Shown piece after piece: positions 1,575 to 44,389 of a DNA stretch of 64,000 nucleotides. The DNA is taken from positions 32,001-96,000 of IMG/VR virus record IMGVR_UViG_3300032291_001597, one strand, 5' to 3'. Positions within the stretch are counted from its first letter, which is position 1. Every line of letters begins with the position of its first letter. Position numbers and translations under genes: made by a program. This DNA is from a virus. Below the pieces are notes generated by a model. That model was not told the DNA's origin, made no database searches, and worked only from the letters and a program-made list of their open reading frames with translations.

Positions 1575-1790
1575 AACAGGTTGTCGACGGAGAACCTGGA
1601 GTATGGCTGAATAATCCTCAAAGTCAAATGGGGAGGATAAGGCAACGTCTGACCTTAGCGGGTCGCCTTAGCGGGCAAAGGGCGGGTGTGCTCAAAAGCG
1701 GTACTGATGAACCGTATTGACTAGGCACTGGTGGTAAAAGGCAATCCACCTACTCACCACCACTCCTCTCATTAATGGGGAGTGGTACCC
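1575..1790 (+). ncRNA. candidate multi-hairpin structured RNA upstream of tRNA-Gly
   Basis: Extended -10 (tgttatagt, ~1559-1567) followed by at least seven stem-loops and no good ORF. Confidence 0.5.
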
Positions 1791-4933: not shown

Positions 4934-5006
4934 CCCCGCGTAACTCAGTGGATAGAGTGAGACCCTTCTAATGTCTAAGTCGCAAGTTCGATTCTTGCCG
5001 CGGGGA
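4934..5006 (+). tRNA. tRNA-Arg(TCT)
   Basis: Acceptor ccccgcg/cgcgggg; anticodon loop cttctaa; T-loop gttcgattc; one mismatch in the anticodon stem. Confidence 0.9.
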
Positions 5007-5021
5007 CTATAGAATAAAGCA

Positions 5022-14871: not shown

Positions 14872-15062
14872 GGAATTATTATAAGTGGTTCGGTTCTGGT
14901 TGTATTTTAATGTATCACTTTTTCTGCGACGGTGTTCTTTTGTGGGAGGCGGAGGATTAAAAATGGTCGACGTCGTTATGAAATAAAGGAAGTGTTGGGA
15001 AATGTCAGGAAATCGGGAAAAAGGATACTGAAGGAAAAAGTGAAAAATAATTGATAAAAGTG

Positions 15063-15198
15063 GATAGTATCTCGGAAGGGTGAAAACTGAGATACTATCG
15101 AAAAATAGTAAAAGATAATTATTGTTTTGCGATAGTATCTACAACCTAATACAACCTAAAAATCCAATCAATCGAAGTTCTATTACGCGCATGCGCGT
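15063..15198. repeat. inverted and direct repeat cluster in a divergent intergenic region
   Basis: GATAGTATCT at 15063, 15131 and inverted at 15090; TACAACCTAA x2 at 15140-15159; palindrome ACGCGCATGCGCGT at 15185-15198. Confidence 0.8.
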
Positions 15199-15293
15199 GC
15201 GTGTATAGGTGGCAGAAAACACGGTTGAATGGATAAATAGGTTTATTACTTGATTGGGTCGTAATGGATTGTATTTGGGTGTAGGATTTAGTT

Positions 15294-15755
15294 ATGACTA
15301 ATCCATTCGAATTTTTGGACATTGACGAGAACGAAGCCAAAGAAACTCTGTCCGAAATCAATCGAGTAGGTAATCGAGATAAACGCATTTGTATCTGCGG
15401 ACACTCAATCAATTACCACTCATTTATTTCGACAAGAGGACATCACACTTGTAACGCACAGAAAAATGCTTGTAAGTGTCGAAACCCTAGACCAGTTCTA
15501 GAAACCACTAACGCACGAGTATTCAATCGAAAGACACAAGGCGCTGCTGGACTTCACGCATTGACGCAAGGAATTGCTGGTGCGATGGAAGTTGGGGCAA
15601 CAATAGAGTGGCTCATTGAAATGAAATGCGACAAGTGTGACACTGTTGGACCAGTAGTTCCAGTTCCAGTAACACAACAAGGAGTGATTAGCAGTAGCGG
15701 TCACACTGGCTTTGACAAAATGCTATGTAGAGGATGTCGCACAAATGGACAGTAA
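15294..15755 (+). CDS. Cys/His-rich (zinc-binding) hypothetical protein
   Basis: CICGH..H..C..CKC, CDKC, CRGC. Confidence 0.7.
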   Translation: MTNPFEFLDIDENEAKETLSEINRVGNRDKRICICGHSINYHSFISTRGHHTCNAQKNACKCRNPRPVLETTNARVFNRKTQGAAGLHALTQGIAGAMEVGATIEWLIEMKCDKCDTVGPVVPVPVTQQGVISSSGHTGFDKMLCRGCRTNGQ

Positions 15756-18030: not shown

Positions 18031-18252
18031 TGCCTTTCTAAATGAAAAAGGTAGCGGTCAGGCTCACCTCATCAAAAATTTCGTCCAAATCAAAAATAAA
18101 GATTGACTTTATAGTGATAACTGTCAGGTTGTATAAACCTGTGGGATGAGACACCCTTAGGTTGCCCAAAGCACACGAATGGGTCGGGCGGGAAGCAGTC
18201 TCTCCCCCGACTTCCCGTCCGACTCTTATGAAATAGCAAGGACGTAATTTCA

Positions 18253-19182
18253 ATGTCAGACCCTCGTGCTATAGATTCGGCGGACCCTTTCTCTACTCCT
18301 ATCGCAGAGAAGCCAGACGTTCAGGTCGACACTCCAACTAACCTCCGCCCCGACCTTTCTCAATATGGAATCGAAGAAGTAGACAAGGGCATCTGCGAAG
18401 ACACGTATGAGAACCGCGCTGCCTTACGTCGAGCAAAGATGAACTGGATTCCTGTTTACGCAGTGAACGGCGTTCCTACTGGAACCATCCAAGCCATCTC
18501 TCCTGAGATGCAAACTCAGCAAAGAATGTTGAGCCTCGATGAGAAGGTCGCAATTCTTTCAGACCCTAAAAATAAAAACTCGGATTACTTGACGGGCTTC
18601 GACCTTCTTGCTGAATCCGAGGGCGACTTGATTGCGCCACCTTGGGTTCTCGGCGCGACGCGCGTTTGGGCAAAACTCTATAATGAAGCGAACGGCGATT
18701 TCGAATCGCTTGGAAAAAAGGTACCCCCTTTACCATCACGTTGTAAGGCCATCAAGGACGACGGCATCCGCTGTCAGTTATGGACTGGAGGACGTCCACA
18801 GGATGACGGCTTCTGTCGCGTTCACCTTGGCGCGTTACGCAATAAACCGACGGACTCAGTTGAACGCGCTCGCGCACGTCTGACTCAGGTTGCCCCTGTT
18901 GCTGTCGACACCCTTGAGCAGTTGATGGAGTCAGCCGAGTCTGAGCCAGTGAAACTAAAAGCAGCCACAGAAATTTTGGACCGCGCGGGTGTCAGAGCAG
19001 GCTTTGATATAAATACTGATGTTACTCTAGACGTCAGGCCCGCTGCTTCTATAATCGCCGAACGTCTACAACGGTTAGCCCAAAACACGCTCGATGCTCA
19101 AAGACGTATCGACGAAGCACAGCCACCGACCATTGAAGTAGAAGTAGAAGAAGCAGAGGTAGTTCCAGATGACGCTAAGTGA
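18253..19182 (+). CDS. probable terminase small subunit with CCCH-type zinc finger
   Basis: CKAIKDDGIRC..FCRVH followed by ARARL..APVAV..ESEPVKLKAATEILDRAG. Confidence 0.55.
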   Translation: MSDPRAIDSADPFSTPIAEKPDVQVDTPTNLRPDLSQYGIEEVDKGICEDTYENRAALRRAKMNWIPVYAVNGVPTGTIQAISPEMQTQQRMLSLDEKVAILSDPKNKNSDYLTGFDLLAESEGDLIAPPWVLGATRVWAKLYNEANGDFESLGKKVPPLPSRCKAIKDDGIRCQLWTGGRPQDDGFCRVHLGALRNKPTDSVERARARLTQVAPVAVDTLEQLMESAESEPVKLKAATEILDRAGVRAGFDINTDVTLDVRPAASIIAERLQRLAQNTLDAQRRIDEAQPPTIEVEVEEAEVVPDDAK

Positions 19183-19378
19183 ACTAATTGAGTTAGCGAC
19201 GGAGCACACCTTACGGCTCGCGGAAGACGTCAAACTTGCGTCGACTAGAATGGAACACGTGCGGGTTACGGCTCGCGCTAATGAAGCATCGAACTTACTC
19301 CACGCCCTAATGCACTACACACCCGACGGATTGCCAGCAAACAATGTCTCTATTTCAGAAGCCGAACCCGACGAGTAA
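19169..19378 (+). CDS. hypothetical protein
   Basis: Overlap-coupled to both neighbours. Confidence 0.6.
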   Translation: MTLSELIELATEHTLRLAEDVKLASTRMEHVRVTARANEASNLLHALMHYTPDGLPANNVSISEAEPDE

Positions 19379-29550: not shown

Positions 29551-29668
29551 CAACGGGCGTAGGTTCACCCCCCCTCGAACCTACGGCTCGTGCGTGATGA
29601 GTTTTATTGCTTTCTCATCACGGCTCGCCCCCTAACTGCTTCCCCCAGCGGTTAGGGGGTTTTCTTTT
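29551..29668 (+). ncRNA. candidate ~120-nt three-hairpin sRNA with its own promoter and terminator
   Basis: TTGACA at 29515; 9-bp, 9-bp and 14-bp stems; T run at end; no ORF. Confidence 0.55.
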
Positions 29669-29776
29669 GACGGCTCGCCCTTACACGCTATGCGTGTCGC
29701 CCGTAGCCCTTGACGGATAGCCCTGAGCGTGTATAATGGTAGGACAGCCAACGGAGACGCAACGGAAGGAGTTGTA

Positions 29777-30801: not shown

Positions 30802-31101
30802 ATGAAAGAAATCAAGAAAGTTGAACTCGGTTTCAACGCAGACGCACGACAGGCACTCGCAGAGTTGCTTGAAGCCAAGGCAGTTATCGCTCAGGCTACC
30901 GCCAAGAAGGAAGCCGCCCAGAAGGTTCTGTTTGACCTAATCGGCGACAACAACCAAGCAACCTTCGGTGGCGTTCTATCGTTCAAGGTAATTGACGGCA
31001 AGAACCGCCACGCTGACCTGACAATTCTCGAAGAGAAGTATCCCGAGATTTTCGCCGAAGTAATCCGCACAACTGAATACAAGCAAATCCGAACCGCCTA
31101 A
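30802..31101 (+). CDS. hypothetical phage protein
   Basis: Promoter, aagga RBS, followed by a terminator. Confidence 0.75.
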   Translation: MKEIKKVELGFNADARQALAELLEAKAVIAQATAKKEAAQKVLFDLIGDNNQATFGGVLSFKVIDGKNRHADLTILEEKYPEIFAEVIRTTEYKQIRTA

Positions 31102-31158
31102 TCCCCCAACGGCGTTCGGTCGGCAAGCCCCCAGAGCAATCTGGGGGTTTTGTCTTTA

Positions 31159-31600
31159 ACGGCTTGCCCTTGACGGCTCGCCCCTATGACCGCCAACGGA
31201 TAAGACCAACGGCTCGCCCTTGACGGCTCGCCTGATACGGATTGACGGCTCGCCCTATGCCAACGGCTAGCCCTTGACGGATAGCACGCCAGCGGGTCGC
31301 TGACGGCTCGCCCTTGACGGCTCGCCCTTGACGGACAGACGGACACAGACGGCTCGCCCTATGACCGCTGACGGCTTGCCCGTAGGAAGTCCAACGGCTT
31401 GCCCTAAGAGACCCTGACGGGTCGCTAACGGCTTGCCTATGACGGCTTGCCCTAAACGCCCAACGGGTGAGCGTGTAGAGCCTGACGGGTCGTGTTTTGA
31501 CGGGTGGGTAGTGGGAGTCGGGAGAGCCTGACGGATAGGTAAAAGGGGGGTGAAGCGATTGACGGGTGGGAAGGGGAAGTCGCCGGGGATTGACGGGTGG
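31159..31600 (+). repeat. degenerate tandem array of ACGGCTYGCC(CTTG)
   Basis: 13 copies at 31159-31451, decaying into GACGGGT units up to ~31600. Confidence 0.9.
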
Positions 31601-31770
31601 GTAAAGGGGTAGTGGATTTTCCAGACTAGACGCAGAGGCTGAGTCATGTGAAGGCACTCGAAGAAGGGGGTCGAAGGTGGGGGGACTCATGAAGGGGGGT
31701 TGGGAGTCATGGGGGGGAAGTGGGAAGAAGGGGGGAAGTTCAGGGGGGAAGGGGAAGCCGGGGGAGTTTT
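31502..31770 (+). other. G-rich tract with G-quadruplex potential
   Basis: GGG-T-GGG-TAGT-GGG-AGTC-GGG at 31502-31522; about ten further G3-G7 runs at 31660-31770. Confidence 0.7.
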
Positions 31771-31811
31771 GGAAAAGGGGTAAGGGATTTTCCAAGCGAG
31801 TTTTTAGGTCT

Positions 31812-31880
31812 AAAAAACACAAGATACACAAAAAGTCAAGTTGAGTCGAAAAAACATAAGATACACAAAAAGTCAAGTTG
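31812..31880 (+). repeat. 32-bp A-rich direct repeat x2
   Basis: aaaaaacaYaagatacacaaaaagtcaagttg at 31812 and 31849 (1 mismatch); partial third copy at ~32078. Confidence 0.9.
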
Positions 31881-32385
31881 TGGTGAGTCGAAGTTCAGCA
31901 AGAAGCACGCAAGATGAGCAAGATAAGCAATAAAACAGGAGAAGTTCGAGAAAGTTGGGTCGAGAACAGCCTGGAGAAAAAGGGGTATAGGTTTTTCCAA
32001 GCGAGCCGCTGGTCTTGGGATTTCGCAAACCAAGTTGCGTCGAGCAAAGTTATTTCACAAAAACACACGAAGTGAAGCAAAAGTCAAGTTTGGGTGGACA
32101 AAAACTTGAAAGAAGTTCAGGAAGTTCAACAAAAAATAAGAAAACAAGAAGAAATTAAGAAAAATAAGAAGAAAGAAGCGAAGCGAAGGAGAAGTTCAGC
32201 AAATTACCCTGGAAGGTATTTTCGCGTGGAAAACCAATGACCCTTTTTTTTTTAGTTTCTATCCCTGGCAGGAAACTTTTTGGGACTCAGCGAAAAAGAT
32301 GGCAAATGCGATTGACTTATGTCTGGGGTGGGGGCTATACTTTTCGTATCTTGTAAATCTAGTTGGGGGAGATGGGGTGATAAAA

Positions 32386-32604
32386 ATGGCAACTAACAAT
32401 GTTTGGGAAATCGTGGACAACGATTTCGTTGATGTGGCTTGTGCGAAGTGCGCTCACGACTTTCTCGTCGAGCGTGGCGTCAAGGACCACGCAGTAGGCG
32501 AGAACTACTACAACGCAGACGCTGGTCTCTTTGCTCAGGAAGATGTGTTTGGCGAACACGCTGGTCAAGAACACAGATGTAATTGTGGCGTCGATTTGGT
32601 CTAA
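32386..32604 (+). CDS. small zinc-binding protein
   Basis: CAKC..HRCNCG; followed by a terminator at ~32620-32655. Confidence 0.65.
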   Translation: MATNNVWEIVDNDFVDVACAKCAHDFLVERGVKDHAVGENYYNADAGLFAQEDVFGEHAGQEHRCNCGVDLV

Positions 32605-40563: not shown

Positions 40564-41109
40564 ATGACAGAATTTCTCAAAAGAAATCAAAAATTACCAC
40601 CGAACCTGATTGAAATAGTAGCAACCATCTCGGATATGGAACTTCGCGATACCTACGTTCGTGCGCTTAGAAACAAGGGCTGGACCCTACAAAGTATTGC
40701 CGAAGCCTGCGATGTATCCCGCGAGCGCGTTCGCCAAATCTGCGAGATGCCTGAGTCCAAGTTGTTTGACTCAGTGGTAGTTCCTAGTCCGCCACTGAAG
40801 CAGATACGCGAGAAGGTTGTATACGCAGAGCCAACAAAGGAAACTTTAGACAGGTTGCTGGAACTAAAGCCACTTGCTCAACAGGTGCGCTCTCACGCAA
40901 CTCGTTATCGTGCCGAAGCAGAAGAATACACTCGCCTGCTGAACCACGCTCACAAGGTAGAAGGAGTATCGCTATACAACCTAGCCAGACATCTAGGAGT
41001 TACCTATCCCGCTATTCGATTCCGATTGACTCGATACGGATATCTAGACGCTGGTAATGGAACTAGCAAGGTATACAACCCAATCCTTACTAAGAACCGT
41101 GCTCTCTAA
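40564..41109 (+). CDS. tandem HTH DNA-binding protein
   Basis: GWTLQSIAEACDVSRERVRQI; GVSLYNLARHLGVTYPAIRFRL. Confidence 0.75.
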   Translation: MTEFLKRNQKLPPNLIEIVATISDMELRDTYVRALRNKGWTLQSIAEACDVSRERVRQICEMPESKLFDSVVVPSPPLKQIREKVVYAEPTKETLDRLLELKPLAQQVRSHATRYRAEAEEYTRLLNHAHKVEGVSLYNLARHLGVTYPAIRFRLTRYGYLDAGNGTSKVYNPILTKNRAL

Positions 41110-43014: not shown

Positions 43015-43575
43015 TTACTTACGCCAGTCCTGCGGGTCGATAGATAGCAACCACTCGTTAAAGTTTTCGTTAGTTAGGGATGCGCTTCCGCGATTGTCCT
43101 TCACCAACTGGATTGCTTCTTCTGCCGAGTAGCCTTCGCGAATTAGAACCAATGCGGTTACTATCCCTGAGCGGTTCAGTCCTGCTTGGCATCTAACTAG
43201 GACTCGTTTACCACGCTTCCAATTAGAGTGCGCTACTAGAACTATGTCCCGTAGGTCTTCGACATCGAAGTCAGTCATATCGCCGTCATAGATGCCGAAC
43301 CTAATCTCCTTCACCCACCAGTCCACAGGTTGTGCCGATGAATACATCGTCACTACTAAGTCGAAGTCTTCAGGGGTAATGAAAGCACCAGAGCCGAACC
43401 TTTGTGTGCGGACAGTGTCAGTTGAGTCAGTGCCACCTTGCCACAGACCCGGAGCAATCTCATCCCAGAGTCTCATAGGCATACGGTGACCCTTGTAGGT
43501 CTCGTTAGTCAATGCCGATAGGCTTGTGTTAGTTAGGTTAGTTGTCAATTCAGATTTCCTTTCGTAATTTCTCAT
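43015..43575 (-). CDS. dual-specificity (Cx5R) protein phosphatase
   Basis: VLVRCQAGLNRSG; true start probably ~43482. Confidence 0.88.
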   Translation of the reverse strand: MRNYERKSELTTNLTNTSLSALTNETYKGHRMPMRLWDEIAPGLWQGGTDSTDTVRTQRFGSGAFITPEDFDLVVTMYSSAQPVDWWVKEIRFGIYDGDMTDFDVEDLRDIVLVAHSNWKRGKRVLVRCQAGLNRSGIVTALVLIREGYSAEEAIQLVKDNRGSASLTNENFNEWLLSIDPQDWRK

Positions 43576-43960
43576 AACCCAATGTTATCGAGTCATATCT
43601 CGTCTGTCAAGTCAATGCCGATACTTATTTTGGCTTCGGCACGTCTTATGCCGATAGCCCCTTCTTATGCCGTTGATGATTTTCAATACTTGTCTCCCAA
43701 CCAATTCGCAAGCAGAGTTGATGACTGGCCCGATGACTTTGTTATTTCATAAGCAATAAACAACCAGTTGGAAGCCCTTGCTTCTCCCCCAAAACTTGTA
43801 GACATCCTAGGAACCAGTTATCTACTAGCAATCACATAGCAATAAGCCCAGTTGTCTTCTAGTTTCAGCCCATAACCAGAGAACCAGAAGCCAAAAAGAA
43901 AGGTCGAGCGCGAACGACGGGTGGTTACTGGAAAACCATAGACCCCTTTTTATCTCACCT

Positions 43961-44022
43961 GAGGCAGCCAGGGAGGCAGCCAGGGAGGCGGCCAGGAGGC
44001 TATTTTTAGGCTATTTTTAGGC
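43961..44022 (+). repeat. short tandem repeats
   Basis: GAGGCAGCCAGG x2 plus a variant, then TATTTTTAGGC x2. Confidence 0.8.
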
Positions 44023-44067
44023 TTGTTTTGGGCTTCTTCTAGTCTTCTTAGGCTAGTCAAGGGCTAC

Positions 44068-44096
44068 TTGACTTGTTTTTTGGCTACTTTTATGAT
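44068..44096 (+). promoter_or_regulatory. sigmaA-like promoter ~290 nt upstream of the head operon
   Basis: TTGACT-17-TATGAT. Confidence 0.6.
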
Positions 44097-44389
44097 AGAT
44101 TAGACATCTCAAAAGGCTCACTCGAAGCCCAAACCAGCCAAAACCCAACAAAACAATCCAAAACGACCATTTTTGGAGTCAAAATCGGCACTCAAAACGG
44201 CATTTTGACGGCATTTTTATGGCATTAGGAAACAATTTCGGTTTGGCTTAAACCCCACGATACCCAACTCGCACGCCAAAGCCAAAATACGATAATGTAT
44301 CATTTTTCTAATCAGTCCCATTATGAAAAACGCCCCTCCCGGATTTTTAGAAAAATTCGTCCCAATACAGATGCTAAAATAGATACATT

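Follow-up and report, generated by a model that had tools for sequence, protein, structure and literature searches.

A repeat-rich non-coding block of a freshwater phage as the probable counterpart of the module that closes the terminal repeats of large actinophages

What purpose might be served by a gene-free block of about 1.28 kb set among the early-type genes of a large phage? The question was raised by a 64,000-nucleotide stretch of DNA (the window), which corresponds to bases 32,001-96,000 of the 132,624-bp IMG/VR virus record IMGVR_UViG_3300032291_001597. The block extends from the stop codon of a 99-aa gene (31101) to a sigma-70-like promoter (32312-32341), carries no credible gene and is the largest non-coding stretch of the genome; it is real, non-coding and strongly non-random. 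The original prediction, made from the sequence alone, had taken it for a replication origin, a genome terminus or packaging region, or a transfer-stop-like signal. The terminus was favoured by comparison with other phages, the transfer stop held as a fair positional analogy, and the origin was not supported. The block is probably the counterpart, in this phage, of the non-coding module with which a long direct terminal repeat (DTR) ends in cultured relatives, and hence more likely a terminus than a replication origin.

By the similarity of its portal and large terminase (TerL), the phage is a large actinobacterial siphophage. Its portal was 72% identical to that of DSL-LC01, a phage known from a lake metagenome-assembled genome (MAG), 59-65% identical to those of the Microbacterium phages Pumpernickel, Cece and A3Wally, and 50% identical to that of Arthrobacter phage Mimi; the TerL was 60% identical to the TerL of Pumpernickel. 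The ribonucleotide reductase shares 80-81% identity with its counterparts in Aquiluna and other freshwater Microbacteriaceae MAGs, which weakly suggests that the host belongs to this group. DNA of the phage was present in many lake metagenomes, all 20 run matches being lake or freshwater contig sets, with no RNA run among them. The two ends of the IMG/VR record overlap by 119 bp, which reflects a circular-type join of metagenome assembly and not a physical end.

Terminal modules of cultured phages and their likeness to the block

The DTRs of the cultured relatives were read directly from linear GenBank records, which gave exact repeats of 19,963 bp for Pumpernickel (NC_073468.1), 19,868 bp for Mimi, 18,079 bp for Cece (OP068343.1) and 15,503 bp for A3Wally (MZ150783.1). 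The repeat holds the early-gene block, which is present at both ends of the linear virion DNA, and in Pumpernickel and Cece it starts 61-62 nt upstream of gene 1, annotated in Cece as the terminase small subunit. The DTRs of Pumpernickel, Cece and A3Wally all close with 570-650 bp that were found to be gene-free and to share an order of parts: a terminator, top-strand A-G6+ runs, repeats of the GGCCTAGG and CATG types, a tail rich in purines that includes a second G cluster, and the physical end. The first G6 run stands 111-118 nt after the last gene in these three phages, and the terminus 411-490 nt after the last G6 run. Within the stretches fetched, top-strand AGGGGGG was limited to the terminal module in each of them (3/3 copies in Pumpernickel, 3/3 in Cece and 2/2 in A3Wally). 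A literature search found no description of a function for the DTR-end module in these actinophages, and likewise none of their ends.

The block shows the same features. Like the module in those three phages, it comes after the final plus-strand early gene of a run and a terminator, and for Pumpernickel the terminator sequence itself was homologous: comparison of the block's terminator element with 59 kb of Pumpernickel on 2 strands returned one significant match, located at 19300, which is the start of the module (score 43 versus 27 for the next best; about 40 bits, E about 1e-5). Also common to both are A-G6+ runs exclusive to the module, short repeats containing CATG and a purine-rich tail. 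The G-run zone of the block (31502..31764, plus strand) contains four canonical G-quadruplex (G4) motifs, eight runs of G5 or longer, four copies of AGGGGGG and three GA(G/C)TCATG units. With G4s predicted from sequence as four runs of G3 or longer separated by loops of 1-7 nt, 4/5 of the canonical motifs in the whole 132.6-kb genome fell within 31502-31764. The motif at 31502-31522 that had been announced in the original prediction was present, and three further motifs were found up to 31764. On the plus strand, all of the AGGGGGG copies in the genome (4/4) lie inside the block.

The left end of a corresponding repeat can be sought at a small-terminase-like gene (18253..19182, plus strand), which is a homologue of gene 1 at the left end of Pumpernickel and Cece. 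Its product was 37% identical to Pumpernickel gp1 (E 2e-61), and a profile of the gene-1 family matched the small terminases 7JOQ_I (E 1e-3) and 6W7T_I in the PDB. This gene probably marks the left DTR boundary, at about 18.0-18.2 kb. It lies 13 kb upstream of the block, which closes a run of small plus-strand genes with host-type promoters. A module 13-20 kb downstream of a small-terminase-like first gene is thus a trait held in common with Pumpernickel, Cece and A3Wally, as are a TerL and portal that are 60-65% identical, and TerL type tracks the type of DNA end. When the rule of 411-490 nt from the last G6 run was applied to the block, an end was predicted at 32158-32238, the close of the A-rich tract. 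The word GAAATTAAGAA (32151) is located there and is one of 4 plus-strand genome matches to a pattern that had been drawn from the three known termini and written down before the distance prediction, although the match is a loose one. A DTR delimited in this way would run from about 18.1 kb to about 32.2 kb of the window and measure about 14 kb, just under the 15.5-20 kb of the family.

In the leader of the small-terminase-like gene (18177-18222), a hairpin with a 13-bp stem was observed, the minus strand of which bears GGGAAGTCGGGGGAG. This word resembles GGGAAGCCGGGGGAG in the block (31752-31766), the similarity between the left boundary and the block being marginal (p about 0.04).

The block also differs from the Microbacterium module in several respects. 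At 1.28 kb it is twice as long, has in addition an ACGG array of 440 nt that separates the terminator from the G runs, and holds three copies of an element of the early region; furthermore, it is followed by plus-strand early-type genes, whereas the Microbacterium modules are followed by a minus-strand gene block.

Evidence against a terminus and the setting of the block in the early region

A number of observations weigh against a terminus at the block. The terminator aside, the block resembles the relatives' module in architecture and motifs, without sequence that can be aligned. A profile scan of the whole genome for the relatives' cut junction, AAGGRY/TTTC..GCCAAACGA (AAGGRY/TTTC..CAGCNGCCAAACGAAATTT; the slash marks the cut), produced no match above background. 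The lake-run data consist of contigs, which offer no starts, ends or usable depth steps, and the depths on either side of 32.4 kb were ambiguous. In DSL-LC01, the closest named relative and itself a metagenome assembly, no comparable gap was found in the syntenic region, and a more distantly related contig, L014, was devoid of G runs despite carrying the ACGG array. Sigma-70-like early promoters and the element GGGGT-N6-TTTTCC continue downstream of the block to about 38 kb, and homologues of the Pumpernickel DTR genes gp41 and gp49 were likewise located downstream of it, at 40.07-41.11 kb. The gene order at 41.1 kb (HTH gene, terminator, one minus-strand gene, TerL; HTH, helix-turn-helix) recalls that of the relatives (HTH gene, module, minus-strand genes, TerL). 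On account of this synteny, the DTR could end near 41.16 kb, in which case the block would be internal. No module was found at the 41.1-kb locus, however, despite the matching gene order. The HTH gene in question is the gp49 homologue (window 40636-41109), whose 157-aa product has two sigma-70 region-4-like HTH motifs and is a candidate regulator or terminus-binding protein; the gp49-type gene adjoins the terminal module in Cece, and three small genes stand between the two in Pumpernickel.

The cut junction is common to Pumpernickel, Cece and A3Wally on both of its sides and reads ..AAT(A)TAAGGRY / TTTC..CAGCNGCCAAACGA(A/C)A(A)TTT..TAAGGT(T/A)CAC, the slash again being the cut. In Pumpernickel, a related word, CGAAAT(G/A)T(T)AAG(A/G)A, is found at either boundary of the DTR and is absent from the rest of the 59 kb examined. 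Boundary words of the G[GC]CGAAA[AT]/GCGAAA type were considered as end markers and rejected; they are ordinary promoter-upstream words in the phage genome and, being common upstream of promoters here, are unable to locate ends.

The motifs of the block recur around it. Six copies of ACGGCTHGCC lie outside the block, at 19.4-29.7 kb and without exception on the top strand; a terminator at 29627-29660 is flanked by two of these copies, and one is placed in a 5' leader. All 19 copies fall between 19.4 and 31.5 kb, which is inside the predicted DTR. The word TAGCCCTTGACGGATAGC in the block matches exactly the -35 region of a promoter at 29710, the block copy being without a -10. The element GGGGT-N6-TTTTCC has 14 exact copies in the genome, nearly all in window 19.5-34 kb and usually upstream of early promoters, with a variant at 38.15 kb, and plus-strand sigma-70-like promoters are confined to about 20-38 kb. 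Given the motifs and promoters shared with its surroundings, the block belongs to an early-type region, whose intergenic cassettes supply part of its make-up.

On a rival reading, the block would be an internal, cis-acting part of the early region, the DTR either extending to about 41.2 kb or being absent. It would then operate within DNA that enters first or is transcribed early, as an entry pause like the injection stop signal (iss) of phage T5 or as a barrier or sink of binding sites. In the sink version, the 26 ACGG sites, which resemble the -35 context CCCTTGACGG, would together with the three early-region elements titrate a regulator or RNA polymerase between two early units. The synteny of the HTH gene, the early promoters and early-region element found on both sides of the block, the -35 word shared with the promoter at 29710 and the ACGG words around the terminator at 29627-29660 are all consistent with this, and the repeat regions of T5 are situated both within and at the end of its left terminal repeat (LTR; 10.1101/866236). 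However, the G-run signature and the terminator homology connect the block with a module that had a terminal position in all cultured relatives examined, nothing of the kind was found inside the DTRs of Pumpernickel or Cece, and the block has no DnaA boxes of the sort present in the T5 region. An internal block is consequently regarded as unlikely, if still a contender of some substance. When the shared module features were set against the early genes downstream and the missing junction, homology between the block and the terminal module of the relatives was rated at a probability of about 0.7, and the block being the actual DTR end and genome terminus in this phage at about 0.45.

Other non-coding stretches were noted in the course of these comparisons. 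A second repeat-rich one of 841 bp (window 43549-44389) reaches from a minus-strand dual-specificity-phosphatase-like gene next to TerL to an HTH gene upstream of the portal. It contains about four copies of ATGCCGATA, AACCAG(T/A) units, three copies of GGCAGCCAGGGAG, two of GGCTATTTTTAG and an inverted N6 element (43930-43946), and is a possible pac or regulatory site. In Pumpernickel, a 1.16-kb non-coding region about 8 kb before the right DTR (157476-158635; L022 17477-18636) has many CGCAG(A/T)CTGCG palindromes, two copies of ACTCATGT and G-rich runs, and the gene next to it is the homologue of window 15294-15755. At window 14872-15293, a 422-bp purine-rich divergent non-coding region separates a minus-strand tail-fibre-like block from plus-strand genes and includes the inverted repeats GAGATACTATC / GATAGTATCT and two copies of TACAACCTAA. 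Further upstream, a manA RNA motif (RF01745, 66 bits, above the gathering score) was detected at window 1579-1760 (plus strand), directly upstream of a tRNA-Gly (1791-1862), and a second tRNA, for Arg, at window 4934-5007.

Anatomy and conservation of the block

The gene directly before the block (30802..31101, plus strand) encodes a 99-aa protein like the C-terminal tail of RecE-like exonucleases (phrog_434, E 4e-8). Further relatives of the gene were found at 69-82% identity, Pfam and PDB searches with the protein gave no match, and its AlphaFold model was poor (pLDDT 56). A two-hairpin 3' element (31089..31158, plus strand) begins over the stop codon with a C-rich-loop hairpin (31089-31121) and continues with an intrinsic terminator (31125-31150) and a T tract, so that the terminator named in the original prediction was present and had a second hairpin upstream of it. 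The pair of hairpins folded with -36 kcal/mol (z -4.4), and its match to Rfam family BjrC68 was sub-threshold (32.7 bits, the gathering score being 39). The first hairpin has a loop, CUAAUCCCCCAAC, that is conserved between the phage and Pumpernickel; if this C-rich loop formed part of a stable 3' RNA end, base pairing with G runs or with Shine-Dalgarno-like sequences would be possible.

The terminator is followed by an array of RACGGCTHGCC(C) (31159..31456, plus strand), with 13 sites and additional ACGGA variants in a single orientation. The predicted 13 copies of exact ACGGCTHGCC between 31159 and 31451 were recovered, all on the plus strand; a step of 14 bp was indeed the commonest, but the spacing of the ACGG cores proved irregular, varying from 8 to 50 nt. 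In the whole window the word was found 19 times as compared with 0.24 expected, a number attained in 0/100 shuffles. The ACGG core occurs 26 times on the plus strand and once on the minus strand of 31100-31620, the genome mean being 3.3 per kb. Sites of the variant form TGACGGGT(G/C)GG (TGACGGGTGGG variants) take up 31457..31600 on the plus strand, the final four ACGG cores are set at 31-nt steps, and GACGGGT units were present as claimed, with 7 copies of GACGGGT/GACGGAT in the block. Together, the 26 co-oriented ACGG sites and the G4 cluster make the block unusual in its composition.

The early-region element, AAAGGGGT-N6-TTTTCC(AAGCGAG), i.e. AAAGGGGT-N6-TTTTCCAAGCGAG, was found on the plus strand at 31602-31629, 31773-31800 and 31978-32005. 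Four copies of GGGGT-N6-TTTTCC had been reported for the block, three of which are exact (at 31606, 31777 and 31982); the fourth (32228-32249) is imperfect and inverted, and forms with a T10 run a minus-strand feature at 32228..32256. Copies of the N6 element bracket GAAGTTC units and two A-rich repeats (31808-31880), which are 94% alike and 36-37 nt in length rather than the predicted 32, and a third, degenerate copy lies at 32056-32091. The block further contains six GAAGTTC units and a variable A-rich, purine-rich tail (32006..32227, plus strand) with AAAAATAAGAA twice and GAAATTAAGAA once. The stretch around 32100-32190, described earlier as purine-only, was not found to be so, since 32100-32199 is 80% purine and 58% A, and the longest strict purine runs in the block measure 16-17 nt. 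The purine skew was borne out for 31500-32199 (purine fraction 0.59-0.80) but not for the iteron part, which is C-rich and has a fraction of 0.44-0.50. Inverted repeats in the block were few and weak.

The right flank (32312..32604, plus strand) is composed of the sigma-70-like promoter TTGACT-18-TATACT and a 72-aa gene. Because L014 has this unit at another place and L004, a close relative of the phage, has lost half of it, it was not counted as part of the block. In L004 (7490-7520, corresponding to window 32309-32485) this promoter is missing along with the 72-aa gene's 5' half, and the deletion begins directly after the conserved ..GCAAATGC of the block. A 230-aa minus-strand open reading frame (ORF) and the small plus-strand ORFs were rejected as genes of the block, having no family matches and being broken by indels of 1, 12 and 37 nt in close relatives.

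With direct repeats in such number, a G4-prone non-template strand and an A-rich region, the anatomy alone would suit a replication origin, in which an initiator bound to the ACGG iterons melts the A-rich tract, or in which an R-loop serves as primer once the G-rich non-template strand region is transcribed. Iteron-type origins are typically recognised by phased repeats of about 17-22 bp and an initiator encoded nearby. The units of the block are 10-12 bp long, however, and spaced irregularly at 8-50 nt, the A-rich tract is about 650 nt away from the array, and no initiator, Rep or helicase-loader matches were obtained among the neighbouring genes scanned. The primase-helicase (genome 8.9-11.5 kb) and exonuclease genes are about 50 kb distant. 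A search for DnaA boxes with up to one mismatch yielded nothing in the block but a single minus-strand site. GC skew, which had been proposed as a check, showed no reversal, although this is a weak test of an origin because skew follows transcription in the phage genome. Furthermore, the block is preceded by a strong terminator, and no promoter was detected within it. An origin is therefore considered improbable. A partition centromere of the parS/parC/tubC kind was also sought, and no ParA/ParM/TubZ or ParB/ParR-like matches were found among the neighbouring genes scanned.

The same strong terminator, the absence of an internal promoter and an Rfam scan of the block in which nothing reached the gathering score argue against a long non-coding or protein-sponge RNA. 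The purine-rich strand is the sense strand, and a weak CrcZ-like match was seen (E 0.22, 15 bits versus a gathering score of 95), yet such an RNA appears highly improbable.

Protein-guided scans provided three usable comparator contigs. A metagenome scan for further comparators found none, an exact-pattern scan of IMG/VR for the iteron pair matched two close relatives only, and DNA searches of the phage collection for close or remote similarity to the block or the terminator returned nothing useful. That the block is no artefact of assembly is clear from its presence in two further IMG/VR contigs of other samples, from a contig of an independent lake run that spans it, and from L014, which retains part of it. 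The linkage of 99-aa gene, terminator and ACGG array was kept in the relatives L003, L004 and L014. Over the terminator, ACGG array and GACGGG part, identity to L004 reached 98-100%, the level of the best flanking genes. In L014, the more distant relative, the 99-aa gene, the terminator, about nine TGACGGC(T/A)(C/T)GCC sites and the A-rich tract were retained, and the downstream gene differed.

Conservation also bears upon the suggestion that the block is a non-functional expansion of an intergenic region, made up of decayed genes and of slipped or duplicated regulatory cassettes. The cassettes are indeed those of ordinary early intergenic regions, and repeat numbers vary among close relatives, with one, two or three copies of a 37-nt unit and an extra GACTCATGAAGG unit; the lake contigs, when laid out, showed both the presence of the block and these repeat-number variants. 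The right third of the block (the tail segment) was only 66% identical to L004. The left 500 nt, by contrast, were 98% identical, and 4/5 of the substitutions in the array fell at the degenerate H position of the motif, which means that the remaining nine either are under constraint or have been homogenised across the repeats. The array moreover persists in L014, and the G-run signature is common to the cultured relatives. An expansion devoid of function thus seems rather remote as an explanation.

End formation, DNA entry and comparison with known systems

In T7- and T5-type phages, terminal repeats are made by cutting and by duplication of the repeat during the packaging of concatemers. If the block is the phage's DTR-closing module, it would hold the right DTR boundary, at which terminase would recognise and cut concatemers and finish their packaging, with the repeat being duplicated, and its oriented repeat arrays would be putative protein-binding sites for end formation. 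The ACGG array is an addition specific to the lineage. As the ACGG word is also found at other early terminator/promoter junctions, the array may be a target of RNA polymerase or of a regulator of the early region, and not of terminase. The 99-aa protein was considered as its binder and discarded, given the lack of a DNA-binding family or PDB match and the poor model; a comparison of this protein with Pumpernickel gp52 (hhalign) showed no homology.

A role for the array in the protection of the end was considered as well. The array might serve as a Chi-like cluster that attenuates a nuclease of the RecBCD/AdnAB type, and the G-rich strand, ending 3' at the terminus, might fold into telomere-like G4s. 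The sites are oriented 26:1 and unphased, they stand 0.7-1.0 kb short of the predicted right end, on the strand whose 3' end would be located there, and terminal co-oriented Chi clusters have been described in the lambdoid phage LLS and the Pseudomonas phage MD8 (PMC12315714). In four to five candidate-host freshwater Microbacteriaceae MAGs, however, the host itself being guessed from the ribonucleotide reductase, ACGGCTYGCC was counted 2-7 times per strand, which is about the control level, and GACGGCT was present at about 0.4 times control. The terminus in question is, in addition, a predicted one. End protection through a Chi-like array is accordingly a distinctly improbable account.

A bolder proposal, made by analogy, would extend T5-like logic to the actinobacterial siphophages with DTRs of 15-20 kb. 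The module would in that case combine a terminase boundary with an entry stop or end-protection device, in which co-oriented binding arrays and a G4-forming purine-rich strand ending 3' at the terminus would allow only the early-gene repeat to be exposed first. Two-step DNA entry is not known for actinophages, and the proposal is considered improbable; if it were true, the system would be without precedent both outside the T5 group and in Gram-positive hosts. The reading of the block as the close of a DTR would, if true, give a physical map for an abundant uncultured lineage of freshwater actinophages, linear at about 147 kb with an early-gene DTR of about 14 kb, and would point to a conserved cis module at the DTR edge across large actinophages, from the Microbacterium phages to those of lakes. 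It would also provide a signature by which phage ends might be recognised in metagenomes, consisting of a terminator, top-strand G runs and a purine-rich tail about 0.4-0.5 kb further on. With Pumpernickel, Cece and A3Wally as cultured members, terminase recognition, entry control and end protection could be told apart by experiment outside T5.

Among known systems, iteron origins (lambda ori, P1 oriR/incA and plasmid iterons) share with the block many direct repeats near an A-rich, strand-asymmetric tract. The units of the block differ in being shorter and irregularly spaced, neither DnaA boxes nor a gene for an initiator accompany them, and the word recurs at scattered intergenic sites elsewhere in the early region. 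The stoperators of cluster A mycobacteriophages are asymmetric words of 10-13 bp that keep a single orientation to transcription and are dispersed singly over short intergenic regions of one part of the genome; the block, unlike these, packs 13/19 copies into 300 nt, and no repressor was identified. The Chi clusters of lambdoid phages (PMC12315714) resemble the array in that one short word is clustered in one orientation toward one end, which in the present case is a predicted end. They differ from it in that the word of the block is not host-enriched and forms a tight array within 500 nt instead of being spread over kilobases.

In T5, the left terminal repeat of 10,139 bp ends in a 1,662-bp repeat-rich non-coding region with an injection stop signal (10.1101/866236), and the iss region is reported to have conserved paired DnaA boxes in large inverted repeats (Davison, bioRxiv 10.1101/866236). 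Both phages thus have a gene-free block of more than 1 kb, with many families of direct repeats, at the right end of an early-gene repeat and about 10% into the genome, the place of the DTR being only predicted in the present phage, and in both the block is conserved where neighbouring genes are not. The T5 region, however, is distinguished by DnaA boxes in large inverted repeats and by many palindromes, whereas the block is distinguished by co-oriented direct repeats and G4 motifs, and neither the phages nor their hosts are related. On this comparison, the block is an analogue of the T5 region and not a member of its family.

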